This document shows positions 7,464-57,187 of a stretch of DNA of 64,000 nt, piece by piece (positions within the stretch are counted from its first letter, which is position 1; every line of letters starts with the position of its first letter). Under the pieces are notes generated by a model. It ran no database searches, had not been told where the DNA came from, and saw only the letters and a list, made by a program, of their open reading frames with translations. The stretch is from a virus (taxonomy: Duplodnaviria > Caudoviricetes), in IMG/VR virus record IMGVR_UViG_3300025316_001101. The stretch is one strand, 5' to 3'. The position numbers and the translations under genes were made by a program.

Positions 7464-7928
7464 TTATGTGTCTCTACTAACATTTCCCTTACATTGACAC
7501 CCGCTACCGCACTTTTGGACCACTTTATTAACTTCTTCAGTCTCCGCCGCTCGATCATGAAGGTGACGAATAGCCTTTTCCGACTCCTTACGACGTTCTC
7601 CGAAACGTCGCATTAACGTTTCGGATCTTTCCATATCGAACTTCTGATACACATCAATGTCGCCATTAACATCAATAGCATCAGTTTCATATGGTCCAGC
7701 CACACGGCGTTCGTATTCTGCTTTAACCGCCGTAAGCACACCGAGAGTCCTATTGATGGCATAATATCTCCAACCGCCTTCTGGTTTCATTACCCTATTA
7801 GTAATTGTGGTTAGCACATAATTTAGCACACCCTCAATTTCGTCTTCAGAAAAACTCTCTAAATCATTAACAATTTCTCTGATAGAATCTTTAAGTTGTT
7901 TGCGGTATTTTTTCTTTATATAAGGCAT
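7464..7928 (-). CDS. Conserved phage hypothetical protein
   Basis: The pattern 'MPYIKK...GVLNYVLT...YYAINRTLGVL...EYERRVAGPYE...NGDID' is familiar from phage nucleotide-metabolism regions. Confidence 0.6.
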   Translation of the reverse strand: MPYIKKKYRKQLKDSIREIVNDLESFSEDEIEGVLNYVLTTITNRVMKPEGGWRYYAINRTLGVLTAVKAEYERRVAGPYETDAIDVNGDIDVYQKFDMERSETLMRRFGERRKESEKAIRHLHDRAAETEEVNKVVQKCGSGCQCKGNVSRDT

Positions 7929-7936
7929 GATTTCTC

Positions 7937-8329
7937 CTATCGACTTATTACTTGGTACATTGGTTCAACATACACTGGTTTTGGCGTATCTTTAACGGTA
8001 AAGTCATTGTTGTTCAATGCCTTTTGTGCTTCTATCCACTCTTTTTGAGCCACATCCAATCGGTCATAACTCCCACAACTTTCTGTTCCATCCTGTATAT
8101 TCACATATACATGATACTTCCCATCCTTGTGAATGATTGCGTCTCCGCTAGCACATCCCAAAAATGATTTCCCTTCATTCACATATAAAGGCACAATCGG
8201 AGCTACTTTGCTTTTTAGCTCCTTGGTGGCAAAATTGACAAATGCCAATATGCCAGATTCTTGTTCTACAGTAAATCCATCGCCCTCTTCAGACAAAAAT
8301 TTGTACATCAATTTTTTAAGTTCGTTCAT
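7937..8329 (-). CDS. Hypothetical protein
   Basis: ORF track; tight packing within the operon. Confidence 0.55.
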   Translation of the reverse strand: MNELKKLMYKFLSEEGDGFTVEQESGILAFVNFATKELKSKVAPIVPLYVNEGKSFLGCASGDAIIHKDGKYHVYVNIQDGTESCGSYDRLDVAQKEWIEAQKALNNNDFTVKDTPKPVYVEPMYQVISR

Positions 8330-34215: not shown

Positions 34216-35283
34216 GTGGCTATAAAAGTAATAATAAAAATTACCAAGGATTGGCTGGAGAGCGAGTACATTACTAAAGACAGAAGTATGCAAGATATCG
34301 CATTGGAAGTAGGTTGTGCTTATTCTTCTATTAATAGATATGTCAAATTATTTGGCATACATCCAAAAACTAATGGACAGCATAAAAAGGTAGCTGTACA
34401 GGGTATTCCATTTGGCAATTGGACGCCAATTAAAGAAGTTGCTCCTGCAAAATCCGGCCATACCAAATGGTTATGTGAATGCAAATGCGGTCAGCAATTA
34501 GAAATAGAACACAACGCATTGGCAAGTGGTAAAAGGATACAATGTATAGCGTGCGGTGGCAAAGCAAGACGTGTTAAGGATAGATTGTCAAATGTCTTTT
34601 GGAAGCAAATCAGAAGTGGCGCAGCCAATAGGGGATGGGAGTTCGACATAATACCAAAGCAGGCTTATGATTTATTGTTAAAGCAAGAATTCAAATGTGC
34701 CTTAACAGGAATTTCTATATGCATTGCAGATACCGTGACTGAACACAATCATGGGAAAACCACTGCGTCATTAGACCGCATTCAATCTAATGTAGGTTAC
34801 TGTGTTGAAAACATACAGTGGGTACACAAGCACGTAAATCGGATTAAATATACATGGTCTAATGATGAATTCATTGGCTTTTGTACTTTGATAGCGGATT
34901 ATCATCCGTCGCATCATGATATTGCAGAGGAAACAAATGTAATCAAAACCGCAAATTGGAATTTGATTAGGATGACAGCAAGGCAAAGAGGGTGGGAATA
35001 TGACTTAGACATGGATTGGGCATGGCAGTTATATTTATCACAAGGCAAAAGATGTGCCCTTTCAGGATTGGAATTATCATTTCCTAAAAGTGTATACTCC
35101 TATCAAAAGACAAGAGATGGCAACGCTTCGCTGGATAGAATAGATAGTTCTAAGGGATACGTAAAAGGAAATGTGCAATGGGTCACAAGATTGATCAATA
35201 AAATGAAATCATGTTTCTCAGATGATGAGTTCAAGAGGATTTGTACATTAGTTATGGATTATAATCATGATAAAAAAATTTAG
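34216..35283 (+). CDS. Free-standing homing-endonuclease-like protein with HTH and two tandem HNH-like domains
   Basis: Duplicated 'C..(T/S)G...ASLDRI.S..GY...N(I/V)QWV...N..K' units; N-terminal HTH and Cys motif. Confidence 0.7.
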   Translation: MAIKVIIKITKDWLESEYITKDRSMQDIALEVGCAYSSINRYVKLFGIHPKTNGQHKKVAVQGIPFGNWTPIKEVAPAKSGHTKWLCECKCGQQLEIEHNALASGKRIQCIACGGKARRVKDRLSNVFWKQIRSGAANRGWEFDIIPKQAYDLLLKQEFKCALTGISICIADTVTEHNHGKTTASLDRIQSNVGYCVENIQWVHKHVNRIKYTWSNDEFIGFCTLIADYHPSHHDIAEETNVIKTANWNLIRMTARQRGWEYDLDMDWAWQLYLSQGKRCALSGLELSFPKSVYSYQKTRDGNASLDRIDSSKGYVKGNVQWVTRLINKMKSCFSDDEFKRICTLVMDYNHDKKI

Positions 35284-35881
35284 TCAGTGGGTAGAAAACA
35301 AACAACAAGAAAAGATATTCATTATACTTCGTGGGCCTCCGGGGTCTGGAAAATCAACGAAGATCAATGCATTGCTTGCTCAATACGGAGGAGATTACGA
35401 TCATGTATTTTCGACCGATAATTATTTTATCCCTGTATCACAACAAAAGAAGCGACGTGGTGAGCAGATTTCTACTAGTGATGAATATCAAGAGTATCGA
35501 TCAAACTGGAAGGCAGAGAAATTAGGTGCTGCTCACGCACATAATTTTCAAGAGTTTCAATATGCCGTAGATCTTGGTGTTACGCCATTAGTATTAGATA
35601 ATACCTGTATTGTTTCCAGAGATTTTCGTCACTACGTCGAGTATGCTGATAAAGCAGGTTATACGGTTAAAATTGAAGAACCTGATTCTCCTTGGTGGAA
35701 TGAATATCGCCCATATTTAGCTGATAAAAAGCTTGATCCAAAAAAGCTAGAAGAATTTGCTAAAATACTCGCCAAACGTAACACGCATGGCGTTCCGTTG
35801 GACACTATTCAGAAAATGATCACACGTTGGCAGGATAAGATTGATGTGGATGAACTTTTAGGAAAAAAGCCTAAACAATAA
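35267..35881 (+). CDS. AAA_33/N4BP2-like P-loop polynucleotide kinase
   Basis: Motifs 'LRGPPGSGKST', 'STDNYF', 'VLDNT' and 'KRNTHGVP...I..M'. Confidence 0.8.
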   Translation: MIKKFSQWVENKQQEKIFIILRGPPGSGKSTKINALLAQYGGDYDHVFSTDNYFIPVSQQKKRRGEQISTSDEYQEYRSNWKAEKLGAAHAHNFQEFQYAVDLGVTPLVLDNTCIVSRDFRHYVEYADKAGYTVKIEEPDSPWWNEYRPYLADKKLDPKKLEEFAKILAKRNTHGVPLDTIQKMITRWQDKIDVDELLGKKPKQ

Positions 35882-38460: not shown

Positions 38461-38818
38461 AGAATGGTTAGCATTGGATTACTTGGTCGAAGCTTTCGGA
38501 CAAGAAGAAATAGACTCCCACAAGGTCTTAGATGGGAAGTGGGAGCCCCCACTCAACCAAATTGCTAATGAGCATAATTTCTATTTTAACTCTGAACCCG
38601 ACCCTCAAAAAGAATGTAATGGTCGTCAATGCTATAAATTACATGTTAGTTGCAATTATCATGGCGGAGAAGGAGATGTGGCAAACATTAGTTTCAGACA
38701 TGCTTACTCTGGTTATGGTGATAGATTTAAGTACGGTGCCTCTACGGAAGAAAAGGTTTTGCAAGAAAAGATTGGTAAGGATGTAGTCAATTACCCCTAC
38801 CCTAAAGAGGTTCAATAG
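38450..38818 (+). CDS. CTS-like protein (MNFKEWL), paralog of 41134-41442; C-terminus altered by IS insertion
   Basis: The last ~10 codons lie inside the IS right end. Confidence 0.55.
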   Translation: MNFKEWLALDYLVEAFGQEEIDSHKVLDGKWEPPLNQIANEHNFYFNSEPDPQKECNGRQCYKLHVSCNYHGGEGDVANISFRHAYSGYGDRFKYGASTEEKVLQEKIGKDVVNYPYPKEVQ

Positions 38819-40362
38819 TGGTTTTCATTCGCTTACGCTCACTCGCTCCACTATTGAACTTTCCTTCGGAAAGTAGGGGCTTGGATTGATTAAAAATGTT
38901 TTCAACCAACCTCTTACAAGAGAAAGAATGGATTTTATCCAACCTAATTCTTGAAGGCGTATTGACAACGCCTCTACTGAGTTGAGTCCGAAGACCCTTC
39001 CCGCTACCTGATTTCAGCATAATTCCCAATGCACCGTGCATATCAGCATTGATAATAATACCTGTACTTGACTTGAACAAACCACGCTTTATTCTTCGTC
39101 CTAAATACTCTTCGTGATGACACATTGGTTCATTTGCTAAATGGTCGCACTTTGAAGTATATGCTTCGTTGATGGATTTATATTCAATTCCATATAACTC
39201 ACACTTACTTCGCAATTTCCAAGCAAACTTACCAAACGGAAGCATTACAAAGTTTTGGTTGTTTTTGTCTCCAATGTGACTTCCATCTTGAGCGTGCCAA
39301 CCTTCACCAATTACCACTTTGCCAATTTGATGTTTAATACAAGTTTGAACAATCAAATTGACATATTGATTGAGATGTTCGTTCAATCTACGATTTCTTT
39401 TATCCTCCATTGTTCGCATACGCTTACTTGATTTTTGTCCTTGTGTTTCCAGTATTGATTGTAGTCTTGCTCTCTCCTTATTATACCATTGATTTATGGA
39501 TTTCATTCTACGCCCGTCTAAGATAAACGAGTGTCCAGTTTTACTGTCAAGGCAAGTGGCGAAATTACTTACGCCAGGATCAATACTCAATACACGACTT
39601 TTTTCAAGTTTTGGATGTTCTTGTTCAACTTCATACACAAACTCAATCTCAAAATGCTCTGCTTTACTCTTTGGAAGAATGCGAACCTCTTTTATCCGAT
39701 TGCCTTTGACATTCGGAGGGATTTGATACACAAACTTCTTGAACTTATACTTACTTCGTAAATCTTTTGGCACTGCTACACTAAAATGTTCAACACAATT
39801 TCGCTGTGGAAATATACAGAGGAAATGTCCATCTTTGGGAAGAAAATGAGGTTTTTTGACTGGCTTGTTGTAATTGCCATGTTGTTTCTTTTTCAAAAGT
39901 CCAAAGAAAGAACGAAAACAGCGTTCTACTATTTTCATTGTTTGTTGAGAGGCATCAGTTCCAAGTGCCTTATATTCAGGTCTTACTTTCATTACATGGT
40001 ACGCACTGTTGTAGGTCAAAAATTCTCCGCATTGACCAAAGTGATTGTTAGTTTCCCACAATGTAGAATTGAAAAGATTTTTGCTACGGCGACACATATC
40101 ACGCCAAAACCTAAATTGGCTTCTATCCAACTTCATCTTATTCTTTTGGACTTTGAACATCTCATACTTATATAGTATGATTGCTCATAATTTTTTTATG
40201 AATTCTAAATTATTTTGAAATTATTTTTATTATGGCGGCTTACATCCCACTACCCTAAAGAGGTTCGCTCTGTTCGTTCGGTCGTTCGCCTACGGCTAAC
40301 TTACTCACTCACAGAACAAACATTCCTTTGGAATGTAGGGGTTTCACGCCGCCCCCAGATGA
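38786..40362 (-). mobile_element. TnpB-only (IS1341-like) IS200/IS605-family element
   Basis: tnpB flanked by related subterminal hairpins at 38786-38882 (right end, finishing TAATTGAC) and 40234-40362 (left end). Confidence 0.8.
38802..40160 (-). CDS. tnpB: TnpB RNA-guided nuclease
   Basis: Motifs 'LSIDPG', 'VVIGEGW...Q', 'EAYTSKC' and 'INAD..GA..I'. Confidence 0.9.
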   Translation of the reverse strand: MFKVQKNKMKLDRSQFRFWRDMCRRSKNLFNSTLWETNNHFGQCGEFLTYNSAYHVMKVRPEYKALGTDASQQTMKIVERCFRSFFGLLKKKQHGNYNKPVKKPHFLPKDGHFLCIFPQRNCVEHFSVAVPKDLRSKYKFKKFVYQIPPNVKGNRIKEVRILPKSKAEHFEIEFVYEVEQEHPKLEKSRVLSIDPGVSNFATCLDSKTGHSFILDGRRMKSINQWYNKERARLQSILETQGQKSSKRMRTMEDKRNRRLNEHLNQYVNLIVQTCIKHQIGKVVIGEGWHAQDGSHIGDKNNQNFVMLPFGKFAWKLRSKCELYGIEYKSINEAYTSKCDHLANEPMCHHEEYLGRRIKRGLFKSSTGIIINADMHGALGIMLKSGSGKGLRTQLSRGVVNTPSRIRLDKIHSFSCKRLVENIFNQSKPLLSEGKFNSGASERKRMKTTIEPL

Positions 40363-51962: not shown

Positions 51963-52009
51963 CATGTGTAGCATAAATAGGATATGTGCTTAAATTAAAG
52001 GAGAAAAAT

Positions 52010-52309
52010 ATGGCTGCTATAGAACTCAATACCCCAGAAATAACACCAGCTACACCAGAAAAAGTATATAATCTTTTGTGGCTGTCGCAACTTAATATTA
52101 TGGCCGATAATCCTAATCAAAAAGTTGCAGTAAGTGCCAGACTTGATAAAGGAAGAATTCTTGAAGATGGCGTAACATGGGAGCTAAAAAAAGATGGTAG
52201 TTCTTATGTAAATATAGATGATTTCTTTGCCGAAGCAGAAGCTAATCCTGCCTTGCTTCAAATCATGGGAGGCATACTTACAGAACTTAAAACAAGAGCC
52301 GCACTGTAA
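52010..52309 (+). CDS. Putative tail-fibre assembly/chaperone protein, copy 2
   Basis: 'MAAI.L.TPE..PA.PEK.Y.LLWLSQ...DKGRILEDG.TWELK...DFFAEAE..P.L..IMG.IL...KTR..L' shared with copy 1. Confidence 0.5.
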   Translation: MAAIELNTPEITPATPEKVYNLLWLSQLNIMADNPNQKVAVSARLDKGRILEDGVTWELKKDGSSYVNIDDFFAEAEANPALLQIMGGILTELKTRAAL

Positions 52310-52458: not shown

Positions 52459-53187
52459 ATGTGGGATAAAATCCAATGTGTAATTCAAACTTATAATCAG
52501 CCTGCCACCAAAGAACTACAACAATGGATCGCTTGGACCAAAGTTGATTGGCGATACAGTGAAGGCGGATATGAAATTGATGTGGCCAAGAATCGTTCGG
52601 TTATGAAGTTCCTTGCCGAAGACGTTCCCAGAGGAAAGGAATATTTATTAATGATTGCCAATGATATGGTTCCGATGCCAACGACTTTCAATATTTTGAC
52701 AGAACCAGGAGATTTGATTTATTGTCAATCAATGGGAAATGAAGGTCGATTAGACCATCATGGCGACAAGAATTTTTCTGCCGCCTGTTGGAGAGGACAT
52801 GCTAAGGTTTTACAATCATTTGGCCCACCGTGGTTCCGTATGGGCCATACTGGGGATCGCACTTCTCAAACATATTGTGATTGTGGATATTTCAAAGATC
52901 GAGCACAAGAACAAGGATACGATGGTCGGCAAGTGGGAATTATTGGACATGAACAGAGATGTATTCTTACCCCTCATGGAGAAGATATACAAAAATGGAG
53001 CATGATTTGGCCTAGTGGTTGGCCATTAGGGGATGTATTTGCATCCACACAACCAAAAACAACCGCTGCTCAGTCCCTTGCGACTCCTGTAACCCCTTGC
53101 CCATGTCCGTGTCCGAAACCGGCTGTTACAGCAGCAACTCCAGTTGTCGCTCAACCACAAGCGATTTCTGCGATGCCTGCATGCTAA
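52459..53187 (+). CDS. GT-A-like glycosyltransferase with Pro/Thr/Ala-rich tail
   Basis: 'DVAKNR.V..FL...YLLMIANDMVP' resembles phage GT2-like proteins, with a degenerate DxD. Confidence 0.5.
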   Translation: MWDKIQCVIQTYNQPATKELQQWIAWTKVDWRYSEGGYEIDVAKNRSVMKFLAEDVPRGKEYLLMIANDMVPMPTTFNILTEPGDLIYCQSMGNEGRLDHHGDKNFSAACWRGHAKVLQSFGPPWFRMGHTGDRTSQTYCDCGYFKDRAQEQGYDGRQVGIIGHEQRCILTPHGEDIQKWSMIWPSGWPLGDVFASTQPKTTAAQSLATPVTPCPCPCPKPAVTAATPVVAQPQAISAMPAC

Positions 53188-53195
53188 TTTAATTG

Positions 53196-53234
53196 AAAAA
53201 CCCAATGTCGGCCTACGCCGACATTGGGTTTTTT
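53196..53234. terminator. Bidirectional terminator of the CAATGTCGGC family, also downstream of the tRNA
   Basis: aaaaacccaatgtcggc-ctac-gccgacattgggttttt. Confidence 0.85.
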
Positions 53235-53236
53235 AG

Positions 53237-53344
53237 TAGCCGAAGCGGGACTTGCACCCGCACGGAGGTTACCCTCCACAAGATTTTAATTCATAGCGAT
53301 GACTGTCGCTTGTCTTGTGTGTCTGCTAATTTCACCATTCGGCC
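53237..53344 (-). tRNA. tRNA-Leu(UAA), type II, with a 22-nt insertion between positions 32 and 33
   Basis: Acceptor GGCCGAA/TTCGGCT, D-stem GTG/CAC, anticodon stem CAAGA/TCTTG with loop C|T-TAA-AA, variable arm GGAGG-GTAA-CCTCC, T-stem GCGGG/CCCGC; no encoded CCA. Confidence 0.85.
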
Positions 53345-53345
53345 A

Positions 53346-54254
53346 TCAACTATTTAGCAACTTCCCCATTCTATCTATAGCGTTTTGTCTTCGCAAATGA
53401 GTTTTGGCATATTCTTGACCAGCTTTACCTATCATTTCTGCCTTTTCGGGATTCTCCACAGTCCAATTAACTGCTTGCAACATCCCTTCCGCCGTTTCGG
53501 CGGAAGGGATGTAGTGTACCCAAGGCTGAAAACTGCCATCGAACCAGAACCATTGTTCATATTTACGATCTGTAGCAATTATTGGCCTTCCTGTAGCTAG
53601 CAACAGCGGAAGCCGTCCACTATGCCCATTTGCCGTCAAATCAATTAGAATTCTATATTTACAATGCTCTACGAGGGTAATATAATCGCTGGTGTGCTGG
53701 TAAAGGTTGGTTTTATCCCGTCGATTCCATTCCATCATGCGAATATCCATAAGATCTGGATATTGAGCCGCCAAATCATTGGCTACCACTCTAGTTGGGT
53801 GGGTATTGGCACCGATCCAAAATGCCCGTGAATTGACTGGCAACACCTCTCCTGCCCGCACCAATTCTTGAAAGGTTGTTTCATAGTCCAAAATTCCTAC
53901 TTCGGGCCATGCATCAAACACAAAGTTGGGCATGCATTTATCTAATAGGTCTTTTGAAGTAATGGAAAACGAAAAGTCGGCAGCATGATTAAAAATGTCA
54001 CCAGTATCAATGTGAATCATTTTTTCTGGTCTAGACTGGTCACTTTTTACACATTGATCCCAAGCTGCCTTGAGCAAACGTATTAAAGATGGGTGTCTAG
54101 TTTCATGACATCCATAGTCATTAAATTCTATTTTGGCATGATCATAGATCATGTCTAATTTTTCTTTACCGTAGTGTATACGGTTAGTCGTCTCTCGGGT
54201 CGGCAACGTCAATTTTGTAATCAGCTTCTTCATCAAATTTCTCGAACATTTCAT
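53346..54254 (-). CDS. Glycosyltransferase family 90 (CAP10-domain) protein
   Basis: 'HCKYRILID...GHSGRL..LL..G..I...WF...FQPWVHYIP...V.W...NPEKAE.IG..G.EYA'. Confidence 0.8.
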   Translation of the reverse strand: MKCSRNLMKKLITKLTLPTRETTNRIHYGKEKLDMIYDHAKIEFNDYGCHETRHPSLIRLLKAAWDQCVKSDQSRPEKMIHIDTGDIFNHAADFSFSITSKDLLDKCMPNFVFDAWPEVGILDYETTFQELVRAGEVLPVNSRAFWIGANTHPTRVVANDLAAQYPDLMDIRMMEWNRRDKTNLYQHTSDYITLVEHCKYRILIDLTANGHSGRLPLLLATGRPIIATDRKYEQWFWFDGSFQPWVHYIPSAETAEGMLQAVNWTVENPEKAEMIGKAGQEYAKTHLRRQNAIDRMGKLLNS

Positions 54255-55615: not shown

Positions 55616-55820
55616 AAATTGCCCCGTACCCACGCTTCTGTTCTATGTAGTCATTTCTCTATTGGCCGCTACCCGTCCTCGTCGAGCCGTTCATCCTCTC
55701 AGACTGTTTGCGTTACAACCTCGGAAGTGCAAGCGACTTACGTCTCCTTCCTTAAACGGTGTTGGCGTGAGGTTCCTCACATCCCAGTTACCTGGGGTAG
55801 TGCGACTACTCGGGCAATTT
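55616..55820 (-). ncRNA. rnpB: Minimal RNase P RNA (catalytic domain with reduced S-domain)
   Basis: CR-I GAGGAACCUCACGC, CR-IV AGAGAAAU and CR-V ACAGAAGCGUGGGUA. P2 GUAGUC/GACUAC; P4 ACC-U-CACGC/GCGUG-GGU with bulged U; P5 CAAC/GUUG; P6 CCGUU/AACGG; P15 CGC/GCG with L15 GGGUA; P16 and P17 present. Confidence 0.88.
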
Positions 55821-55972: not shown

Positions 55973-57187
55973 TTACCCCGCCGCTAAAGACGGCGGGGCT
56001 TCCAGTCCAGACAGCAGCCCACTCAAAGCAGGTCTTACGCCATGACAACTGGCTATCTCCGTAATTCCTACGGTTCTATTTTCTAAATTTATTCCTTGTC
56101 TCAATATGTTGGTCGCAGCGTTCCTATCTCGGTCAAGTTTTGTCTCACAACGAGGACAAATCCATTCTCGGTCAGCAAGTGTTAGTTCATCGTTGATGTA
56201 GCCGCAATGATTACAAGTTTTACTGGATGGAAACCATCGGCTCACTTGTATCAACTGACGACCATACCACTTTGCTTTGTAGGTTATCTGCCGAACCAAC
56301 TCATACAAAGAACAATCCCAAATACTTTTAGACAACCTACGATTTTTCATCATACCAGAAATGCACAAATCCTCCAACACGATAGTTTGGTTTTCACTAA
56401 CGATTTGATGGCTGACCTTGTGTAGATGGTCTTGACGAATGTTGTGGATGTAATTGTCTAACTTTGCGAGGCGTAATCGTGCTTTCTGTCTCCCTTTGCT
56501 ATCTTTTTCAGTTCTGGATAGTGCTTTGGCTAATACTCGCCTACGCTTCTCCAAACTGCGATAAGGACGAATATTTGGATAGGTTTTCCCATCCGAACAA
56601 GTCGCAAGTGCTTTCACGCCTAAATCAATCCCAACCGCCTTTTCCACAACAGGCAGTTTAGGAATATGTCGCTGAACACCAATACAGGCAAAATACTGAC
56701 CCGCTTTATTTTTGCTGATAGTAGCGTTTCGGATTTCGCCTTCAATGGGTCGGTGTAATGTAATTTCAATACCCTCTCGGAACTTCACAATATGGAGTTT
56801 GTTGATACGAACCTCAACATGTTGAGGAACACGGAAGGATTGCTTGTGATTTCTTTTCTTAAATCTCGGAAATTTAGCCAAGTTCTTATAGAACCTGTTG
56901 AAACCAGAGTCCAGATGTTTGAGGGCGTGCTGTAATGATTGACTATTCACTTCATTCAACCAGTCCAATTCATCCTTGACTTTTGTTAGTTCTTTGGCAT
57001 CATCGTTGTAGTTCAAAGACTTCTTTTCCAAGTCCTTTTCTTTGGCTTCAAGATAGAACTTTACACGGCGGTCAAGGAAACGATTATACACAAAGCGGAC
57101 GCAGCCGAAGTGCTTGGAGAGTTTAATTTCCTGCTCTTTTGTTGGGTAAATCCTGAACTTGTATGTATAATCCGTGTGTTGTTCCAT
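55973..57187 (-). CDS. tnpB: TnpB RNA-guided nuclease with intact-looking RuvC
   Basis: HTH 'YKFRIYPT'; RuvC motifs 'GIDLG', 'IVLEDL' and 'DRDRNAA'; zinc finger CNHC/CPRC. Confidence 0.95.
   Translation of the reverse strand: MEQHTDYTYKFRIYPTKEQEIKLSKHFGCVRFVYNRFLDRRVKFYLEAKEKDLEKKSLNYNDDAKELTKVKDELDWLNEVNSQSLQHALKHLDSGFNRFYKNLAKFPRFKKRNHKQSFRVPQHVEVRINKLHIVKFREGIEITLHRPIEGEIRNATISKNKAGQYFACIGVQRHIPKLPVVEKAVGIDLGVKALATCSDGKTYPNIRPYRSLEKRRRVLAKALSRTEKDSKGRQKARLRLAKLDNYIHNIRQDHLHKVSHQIVSENQTIVLEDLCISGMMKNRRLSKSIWDCSLYELVRQITYKAKWYGRQLIQVSRWFPSSKTCNHCGYINDELTLADREWICPRCETKLDRDRNAATNILRQGINLENRTVGITEIASCHGVRPALSGLLSGLEAPPSLAAG

Follow-up and report, generated by a model that had tools for sequence, protein, structure and literature searches.

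The stretch of DNA that was analysed here as a whole, 64,000 nucleotides with a G+C content of 41% and referred to below as the window, belongs to a large freshwater phage that is T4-like. Its genes, as assigned with Pfam and PHROGs, include those for a gp23-like capsid protein, a gp32-like protein, a RecA/UvsX-like protein, a DnaB-like helicase, and a family A polymerase, and it also codes for many glycosyl- and methyltransferases, two TnpB proteins and an HNH protein. The best match among GenBank phages was a 595-kb uncultured phage, with 36% identity in the polymerase. The two TnpB genes (OrfB_IS605 / Cas12f-like TNB) are located at 55973-57187 and 38802-40160, both on the minus strand. In the region 34216-35881 of the plus strand, two genes share 17 nt: one is HNH/endonuclease VII-like (phrog_3322, E = 1e-44), and the other, at 35267-35881, codes for a P-loop kinase that matches polynucleotide kinase weakly (phrog_505, E = 1e-7; Pfam AAA_33) and may be an RNA end-healing enzyme.

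A class II tRNA-Leu(UAA) gene of 108 nt was read directly from the minus strand at 53344-53237. It lies immediately downstream of a glycosyltransferase family 90 (GT90) gene (53346-54254, minus strand; PF05686, E = 2.7e-27), the TGA stop codon of which (53348-53346) is separated by a single T from G1 of the tRNA at 53344; the first-pass annotation had reported this one-nucleotide spacing and the absence of an encoded CCA, and both were confirmed. Because the GT90 gene ends 1 nt before the tRNA, the two are probably co-transcribed. A candidate promoter within the 3' end of the GT90 gene (53396-53368), with 9 of 12 matches, was rejected, as such sites are no commoner in the window than in shuffled sequence. 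Starting 3 nt past A73, an A-run, a hairpin and a T-run (53196-53234, no strand assigned) were recognized by direct reading, and we read this element as a two-way intrinsic terminator common to the tRNA and the convergent gene at 52459-53187. The element was not listed by a consensus terminator scan, probably because its T-run pairs with its A-run.

All of the class II arms (acceptor, D, variable and T) and A73 were found by direct reading, by ARAGORN and in the minimum-free-energy (MFE) fold. The acceptor stem, GGCCGAA/TTCGGCT, has seven pairs including a G1-U72 wobble and is followed by the discriminator A73; the 3-bp D-stem, GTG/CAC, closes an 11-nt loop, AAATTAGCAGA, that carries A18 and G19; the anticodon stem is CAAGA/TCTTG; the variable arm is long, GGAGG-GTAA-CCTCC; and the T-arm, GCGGG-TGCAAGT-CCCGC, consists of a 5-bp stem and a 7-nt loop, with T54, G55, C56, A58 and C61. 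The invariant positions U8, A14, G19, G53, T54, C56, A58, C61 and A73 are all in place. The one irregular part of the cloverleaf is the anticodon "loop", which as encoded is 29 nt long and reads C, then AAGCGACAGTCATCGCTATGAA (53311-53290), then TTAAAA. The gene as it stands does not encode an anticodon loop of 7 nt in which U33 precedes an anticodon at 34-36; removing 22 nt restores one. The gene can accordingly be divided into a 5' exon (53312-53344, minus strand; direct reading and ARAGORN -i), which comprises the 5' strand of the acceptor, the D-arm with A18 and G19, the 5' strand of the anticodon stem, and C32; the 22-nt insert (53290-53311, minus strand; i(34,22) in ARAGORN), which consists of the hairpin AGCGA-CAGTCA-TCGCT and the tail ATGAA; and a 3' exon (53237-53289, minus strand), which begins with U33-UAA-A37-A38 and continues with the 3' strand of the anticodon stem, the variable arm, the T-arm with G55, the 3' strand of the acceptor, and A73. 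An otherwise well-paired cloverleaf with a 22-nt insert at 32/33 that contains AGCGA/TCGCT is what had been described initially, and direct reading and ARAGORN bear this description out.

At its default settings, ARAGORN detected no tRNA in the 64-kb window, and the tRNA-Leu gene had no match in Rfam. When introns were allowed, exactly one call, tRNA-Leu(taa) i(34,22), was made in the 64 kb, and none was made in 1.28 Mb of shuffled window sequence. Running the program after removal of the insert had been proposed in the first-pass annotation as a check; with the insert deleted, ARAGORN at default settings called a clean 86-nt tRNA-Leu(taa). Since standard tRNA finders overlook genes that bear such inserts, the tRNA sets of phages are under-counted. 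Excision of 22 nt after position 31, 32 or 33 yields the anticodon UAA in all three cases, and the loops left are AUUAAAA, CUUAAAA and CAUAAAA, respectively, only the first two of which keep U33; the excision site is therefore ambiguous by one base. Within the 27 open reading frames of the window, UUA and UUG account for 29% and 33% of the leucine codons, together about 61%. A working tRNA is plausible because these two codons make up so large a share of the leucine codons and because the sequences bordering the insert join into a perfect anticodon loop.

The MFE fold of the 108-nt RNA retains all four arms of the cloverleaf (z = -3.2), and none of 200 shuffled sequences folded as well. In this fold the insert hairpin is stacked on the anticodon stem through the pairs C33-G53 and A34-U52, which are followed by AGCGA/UCGCU and a 6-nt loop, so that a stable, continuous helix of 5 + 2 + 5 pairs is predicted, and the anticodon lies in an 8-nt 3' bulge, AAUUAAAA. 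A bulge-helix-bulge motif, defined as two 3-nt bulges with a 4-bp helix between them, was not found in the MFE fold or in the 15 best suboptimal folds within 3 kcal/mol, in which the arm forms one continuous helix, interrupted only by the 8-nt bulge on the 3' side and by a bulge of 1 nt. As judged from these predicted folds, the insert is not a bulge-helix-bulge substrate. A group I core is impossible because the insert is only 22 nt long, and no match to Intron_gpI was obtained in Rfam even at E <= 10; nor did the insert match any ribozyme in Rfam. These searches uphold the earlier view, which had argued against both a group I intron and a bulge-helix-bulge intron. Genes for an EndA/TSEN-type endonuclease, an RNA ligase or RtcB were not found in the window with Pfam and PHROGs, and the insert occurs only once within the window, which gives no indication of a repeated element. 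On the plus strand, a consensus scan flagged the insert hairpin followed by TGTCTTGTGT (53295-53310) as terminator-like, which is probably due to chance. To our knowledge, no tRNA splicing takes place in Bacteria or their viruses other than that of self-splicing group I introns, and we know of no EndA-type splicing in Bacteria, the domain of the host in the present case. The insert is a hairpin of 22 nt that cannot self-splice and lacks the archaeal recognition motif, and yet, as argued below, the interrupted gene appears to be kept by selection.

The predicted fold raises the question of whether the RNA functions as it is, without splicing, as a tRNA-shaped molecule whose anticodon arm is extended and whose original anticodon is displayed in the 8-nt bulge. 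Such an RNA might still be leucylated, and could serve either to draw off tRNA-targeting nucleases, as a decoy or sponge, or to donate aminoacyl groups outside the ribosome. The identity of tRNA-Leu for leucyl-tRNA synthetase (LeuRS) lies in A73 and the tertiary core and not in the anticodon, and the fact that the bacterial enzyme does not read the anticodon is in agreement with this explanation, as is the stability of the continuous helix of 5 + 2 + 5 pairs. The purifying selection described below would be accounted for as well as it would be by splicing. What speaks against an unspliced RNA is that the bases on either side of the insert add up to the perfect canonical loop C/U32-U33-UAA-A37-A38, for which an RNA without a decoding role would have no use, and we consider this explanation unlikely.

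Whether an insert-bearing gene of this kind is functional can be judged from its conservation. The GT90 neighbour has a homologue of 96% identity on the ENA contig L119, which represents a diverged sister strain, and this contig carries the tRNA-Leu gene as well, with 107 of 108 nucleotides identical. The search for the same insert in related phages, suggested in the first-pass annotation, thus found it in L119, where it is identical at 22 of 22 positions. The sole difference is the C-to-T substitution at 53312, which changes C32 to U and leaves the 3' exon untouched; position 32 varies freely in tRNAs. Third codon positions of two upstream genes differ between the window and L119 by 8.8% and 11.5%, and the nearest differences in the flanks are found 18-20 nt before the tRNA (53362 and 53364) and 21 nt after it. 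The stems of the terminator are identical in L119, and two of its four loop bases differ. When a divergence of 10%, taken from the neighbouring third codon positions, was used as the yardstick for a Poisson test against this one diverged strain, the exons had 1 change in 86 nt where about 8.6 were expected (P of at most one change = 0.0018), and the insert had 0 changes in 22 nt where about 2.2 were expected, which is not significant (P = 0.11). That the exons are nearly unchanged amid a divergence of about 10% argues that the gene has been kept by selection with the insert in place. The insert would already have been present in the common ancestor of the window strain and L119, and the gene would have been kept since then. 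A short recombination tract beside a homing endonuclease gene (see below) could mimic such conservation.

The apparent purifying selection on the insert-bearing gene argues against a drifting pseudogene. A dead or dying gene could have arisen by a chance 22-bp insertion into a redundant tRNA gene too recently for decay to have set in, and two observations would fit this origin: splicing machinery was not found in the window, and searches of IMG/VR and the JGI metagenomes did not detect the insert outside a closely related group of strains. Against it stands not only the deficit of exon changes, but also the retention of the gene in strains from at least four studies even though both of its flanks have been remodelled. 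DNA sequencing runs of five studies on freshwater or lakes contain the stretch, and contigs from three further studies span the gene without a gap. Between strains, the 5' flank has been altered by an HNH gene and the region beyond the terminator by a gene of 99 amino acids, and the tRNA has stayed in place; it thus appears to sit between two variable cassettes. The 99-amino-acid gene lies in the sister strains between the terminator and a gene of 242 amino acids (L119:3343-3700, compared with 53115-53196 of the window). The window has an open reading frame of 107 amino acids elsewhere (51986-52309), and the C-terminus of its 242-amino-acid gene differs from that of the sister strains. An unexpressed RNA together with an insert unique to this phage and decaying stems in relatives had been named at the outset as the mark of a pseudogene; the sequence pattern observed was the opposite, with the insert in L119 and a single exon change in 86 nt, and we regard a dead gene as very unlikely.

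An insert-free allele of this tRNA-Leu gene was not found in IMG/VR, the JGI metagenomes, the ENA/Logan contigs or four sequencing runs, and more distant copies were not found in IMG/VR, the JGI metagenomes or GenBank phages. The GT90 neighbour used as a query retrieved nothing from IMG/VR, there was no DNA match among GenBank phages, and GT90 homologues of about 45% identity had no adjoining tRNA. Searches with parts of the tRNA gave similar results: the 17-mer of the T-arm was found at 115 loci and the 16-mer of the D-loop at 23, none of them homologous; the insert motif with a free loop had 12 chance matches, none in a tRNA; and the anticodon stem with a gap of 0-30 nt retrieved from the JGI metagenomes and IMG/VR solely unrelated, insert-free tRNA-Leu genes. 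An initiator-tRNA pattern with an insert of 19-24 nt at 34/35 gave only chance matches in IMG/VR. ARAGORN -i did report inserts in other phage tRNAs: tRNA-Leu(tag) and tRNA-Ser(gct) at L094:7636-7757 and 7834-7961 (minus strand), with 39 and 40 nt, respectively, after position 37, and tRNA-Phe(gaa) at L049:6478-6586, with 35 nt near 31/32.

The 5' flank of the tRNA in the sister strain suggested another possible role for the insert. In L119 and in a contig of run X8, 554 extra nucleotides are present between the GT90 stop codon and tRNA-Leu. This block is bounded by a repeat of the first 10 nt of the tRNA and encodes an HNH endonuclease (phrog_2255, E = 2e-24), the reading frame of which enters the tRNA and stops inside the insert. 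Homologues adjoin the 5' end of a tRNA in every examined contig with enough flank; the HNH genes at L119:2700-3248, L164:5880-6314, L169:389-1087 and L171:742-1089 run up to the 5' end of a tRNA gene or into it. The neighbours are an insert-free canonical tRNA-Leu(UAA) in L164, tRNA-Glu in L169 and L170, and tRNA-Ile in L171, and the HNH gene is preceded by truncated remnants of 5' tRNA sequence in L119, L164 and L171. Homing endonucleases are known in the tRNA regions of phages, as exemplified by T4 SegB (PMC13096335), and phrog_2255 looks like a comparable homing endonuclease family specialised on tRNA genes.

With such enzymes in the vicinity, the insert could be kept for a reason at the DNA level, namely that it interrupts the sequence in the tRNA gene that a homing endonuclease recognises, as introns do in collaborative homing, any effect on the RNA being secondary. 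The HNH gene placed directly between the GT90 stop and tRNA-Leu in L119, with the 10-nt repeat at the junction, the 5' tRNA ends that its homologues adjoin, the remnants in three contigs and the precedent of SegB are all in agreement with this idea. However, the insert is present in the window without that endonuclease, and in L164 the enzyme gene adjoins a tRNA-Leu(UAA) that has no insert; for this reason we rate protection of the DNA as a very unlikely explanation for the retention of the insert. Furthermore, the junctions place the insertion site of the endonuclease near tRNA positions 1-26, at least 7 nt from the insert.

A second RNA was detected 2.3 kb upstream of the tRNA on the same strand. 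The sequence at 55616-55820 (minus strand) matches the Rfam model RF02357 (RNaseP-T), an RNase P RNA without the S-domain, over the full model (positions 1-208) with a score of 37.1 bits, which is under the gathering threshold of 60, and E = 2.2e-6 in a 601-nt search. Of the 53 predicted pairs, 10 have substitutions in both partners relative to L119 and none is broken, and a promoter, TTTACA-17-TATAAT, and a T-run are conserved. We regard 55616-55820 as a genuine structured RNA, a candidate for an RNase P RNA encoded by the phage, and a possible processing enzyme for tRNA-Leu. Its identification as a TnpB omega-RNA was rejected, as L119 keeps the RNA and its promoter beside different upstream DNA; the TnpB gene at 55973-57187 is missing at the corresponding place in L119. 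A role as a guide, through a perfect 8-nt complement to the insert, was likewise rejected, since 162 of 300 shuffles reached the same duplex energy and the complement is not conserved in L119, so that the complementarity check provided no evidence for an action of the RNase P-like RNA on the insert. We found no paper on a phage-encoded RNase P RNA in the literature. Within 2.6 kb, the locus thus combines a tRNA gene with an interruption and a candidate for a minimal RNase P RNA, to which the sister strain adds a putative homing endonuclease of tRNA genes, and it offers a compact test bed.

The elbow of the tRNA had been described in the first-pass annotation as co-altered. G19 and C56 are present, and both partners of the 18-55 contact are indeed changed, to A18 and G55, but the change is not an adaptation to the insert. 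Among 280 unique tRNAs parsed from viral loci that had been fetched for other purposes, G55 was combined with an AG (no GG) D-loop in 71 of 74 cases, and T55 with GG in 192 of 201 (Fisher P = 4e-55; the sample was drawn on the G55 T-arm, and the tRNAs of one phage are not independent, more than 25 loci contributing). Whole clusters of phage tRNAs use A18/G55, the variant being frequent, for example, among L024, L079, L094 and L151, and an unrelated phage tRNA-Leu(CAA), found via the D-loop 16-mer, has the identical D-loop together with A18/G55. Within this survey, A18/G55 is a common alternative elbow of phage tRNAs that is unlinked to the insert, and it looks like a working alternative to the G18-U55 contact. 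The elbow therefore lends no support to a non-decoding role and, if anything, marks a normal phage tRNA body. G55 is not convertible to pseudouridine and A18 is not the G that is modified by Gm18 methylation; the variant may relate to host modification or defence. A description of an A18/G55 elbow in phages was not found in the literature.

Taken together, the reading that we favour, at a confidence that comes near to even without reaching it, is that the gene encodes a working phage tRNA-Leu(UAA) with a 22-nt hairpin mini-intron that is removed with the assistance of a protein or a ribozyme. As read from the sequence, transcription would proceed from behind the GT90 gene and stop at the terminator hairpin. 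RNase P would free the 5' end, and CCA would be added by the host enzyme, a reaction that is established for tRNA genes without CCA. Cuts on both sides of the stacked hairpin, assisted by a protein or a ribozyme, would release the 22 nt between 32/33 (or 31/32), and an RNA ligase would then seal the tRNA halves. The product would have the canonical loop C/U-U-UAA-A-A and would decode UUA and UUG. The insert may be a selfish mobile element, or it may be tolerated as protection of the gene or of the precursor. Three readings had been put forward initially: a novel protein-spliced mini-intron, a shield against anticodon nucleases, and a tRNA-like RNA with a non-decoding role. The mini-intron is the best supported of the three, indirectly, by the purifying selection on the exons with the insert present, but "novel" is too strong, because small non-self-splicing tRNA inserts have been reported for the Lak megaphages (PMC6784885).

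A more general proposal, which we find doubtful in the form given here, is that large bacterial phages run their own tRNA splicing without bulge-helix-bulge recognition. Its substrates in several tRNAs would be hairpins of 21-22 nt that stack on the anticodon stem, and a nuclease or even the RNase P-like RNA lacking the S-domain would measure and excise them; the ends would be directly joinable by an ATP-dependent ligase, and the halves would be sealed by a phage RNA ligase, with the insert shielding the DNA from tRNA-gene homing endonucleases. Splicing of the tRNA would mean that phages possess a route for cutting and rejoining RNA that follows a new substrate rule, and that their RNA ligases have a housekeeping job beyond the repair of nuclease damage; if the tRNA is not spliced, the locus encodes a conserved tRNA-shaped RNA with a new function.

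The insert can be compared with several known systems. The group I intron of cyanobacterial and plastid tRNA-Leu(UAA) is self-splicing, is longer than 200 nt, and lies between U34 and A35. It interrupts the anticodon loop of the same tRNA species as the insert described here, which differs in being 22 nt long, in its location after position 32, and in having no match to an Rfam intron. Archaeal and eukaryal introns, which are processed by EndA/TSEN together with RtcB or Trl1 and include archaeal introns at non-canonical positions, resemble the insert in being short, in having no ribozyme core, and in lying in or near the anticodon loop; in contrast, no bulge-helix-bulge was found here in the predicted folds, the 5' boundary falls inside a continuous predicted helix, and the host domain is bacterial. 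The position of the endonuclease gene directly against the tRNA gene in L119 recalls SegB of T4, which is of the GIY-YIG type, whereas the L119 enzyme is of the HNH type. The "enigmatic" introns of the Lak type, described by Devoto et al. (2019, PMC6784885), are the closest published case: the tRNA genes of the Lak megaphages contain small non-self-splicing introns, the sequences of which are conserved across strains, and one of which may itself encode a tRNA. They share with the present insert the location in the anticodon loop of a phage tRNA, the need for intron-tolerant finders, the lack of an Rfam class, and sequence conservation between strains. The Lak tRNA-Tyr(GTA) intron, listed in Table S6 of that report, is 93 nt long and follows position 37, unlike the insert described here, which comprises no more than a 22-nt hairpin and follows position 32 (or 31). 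What the present locus adds to the Lak case is a smaller hairpin at 32/33, a test for selection, a neighbouring endonuclease that appears to target tRNA genes, and a candidate RNase P RNA.
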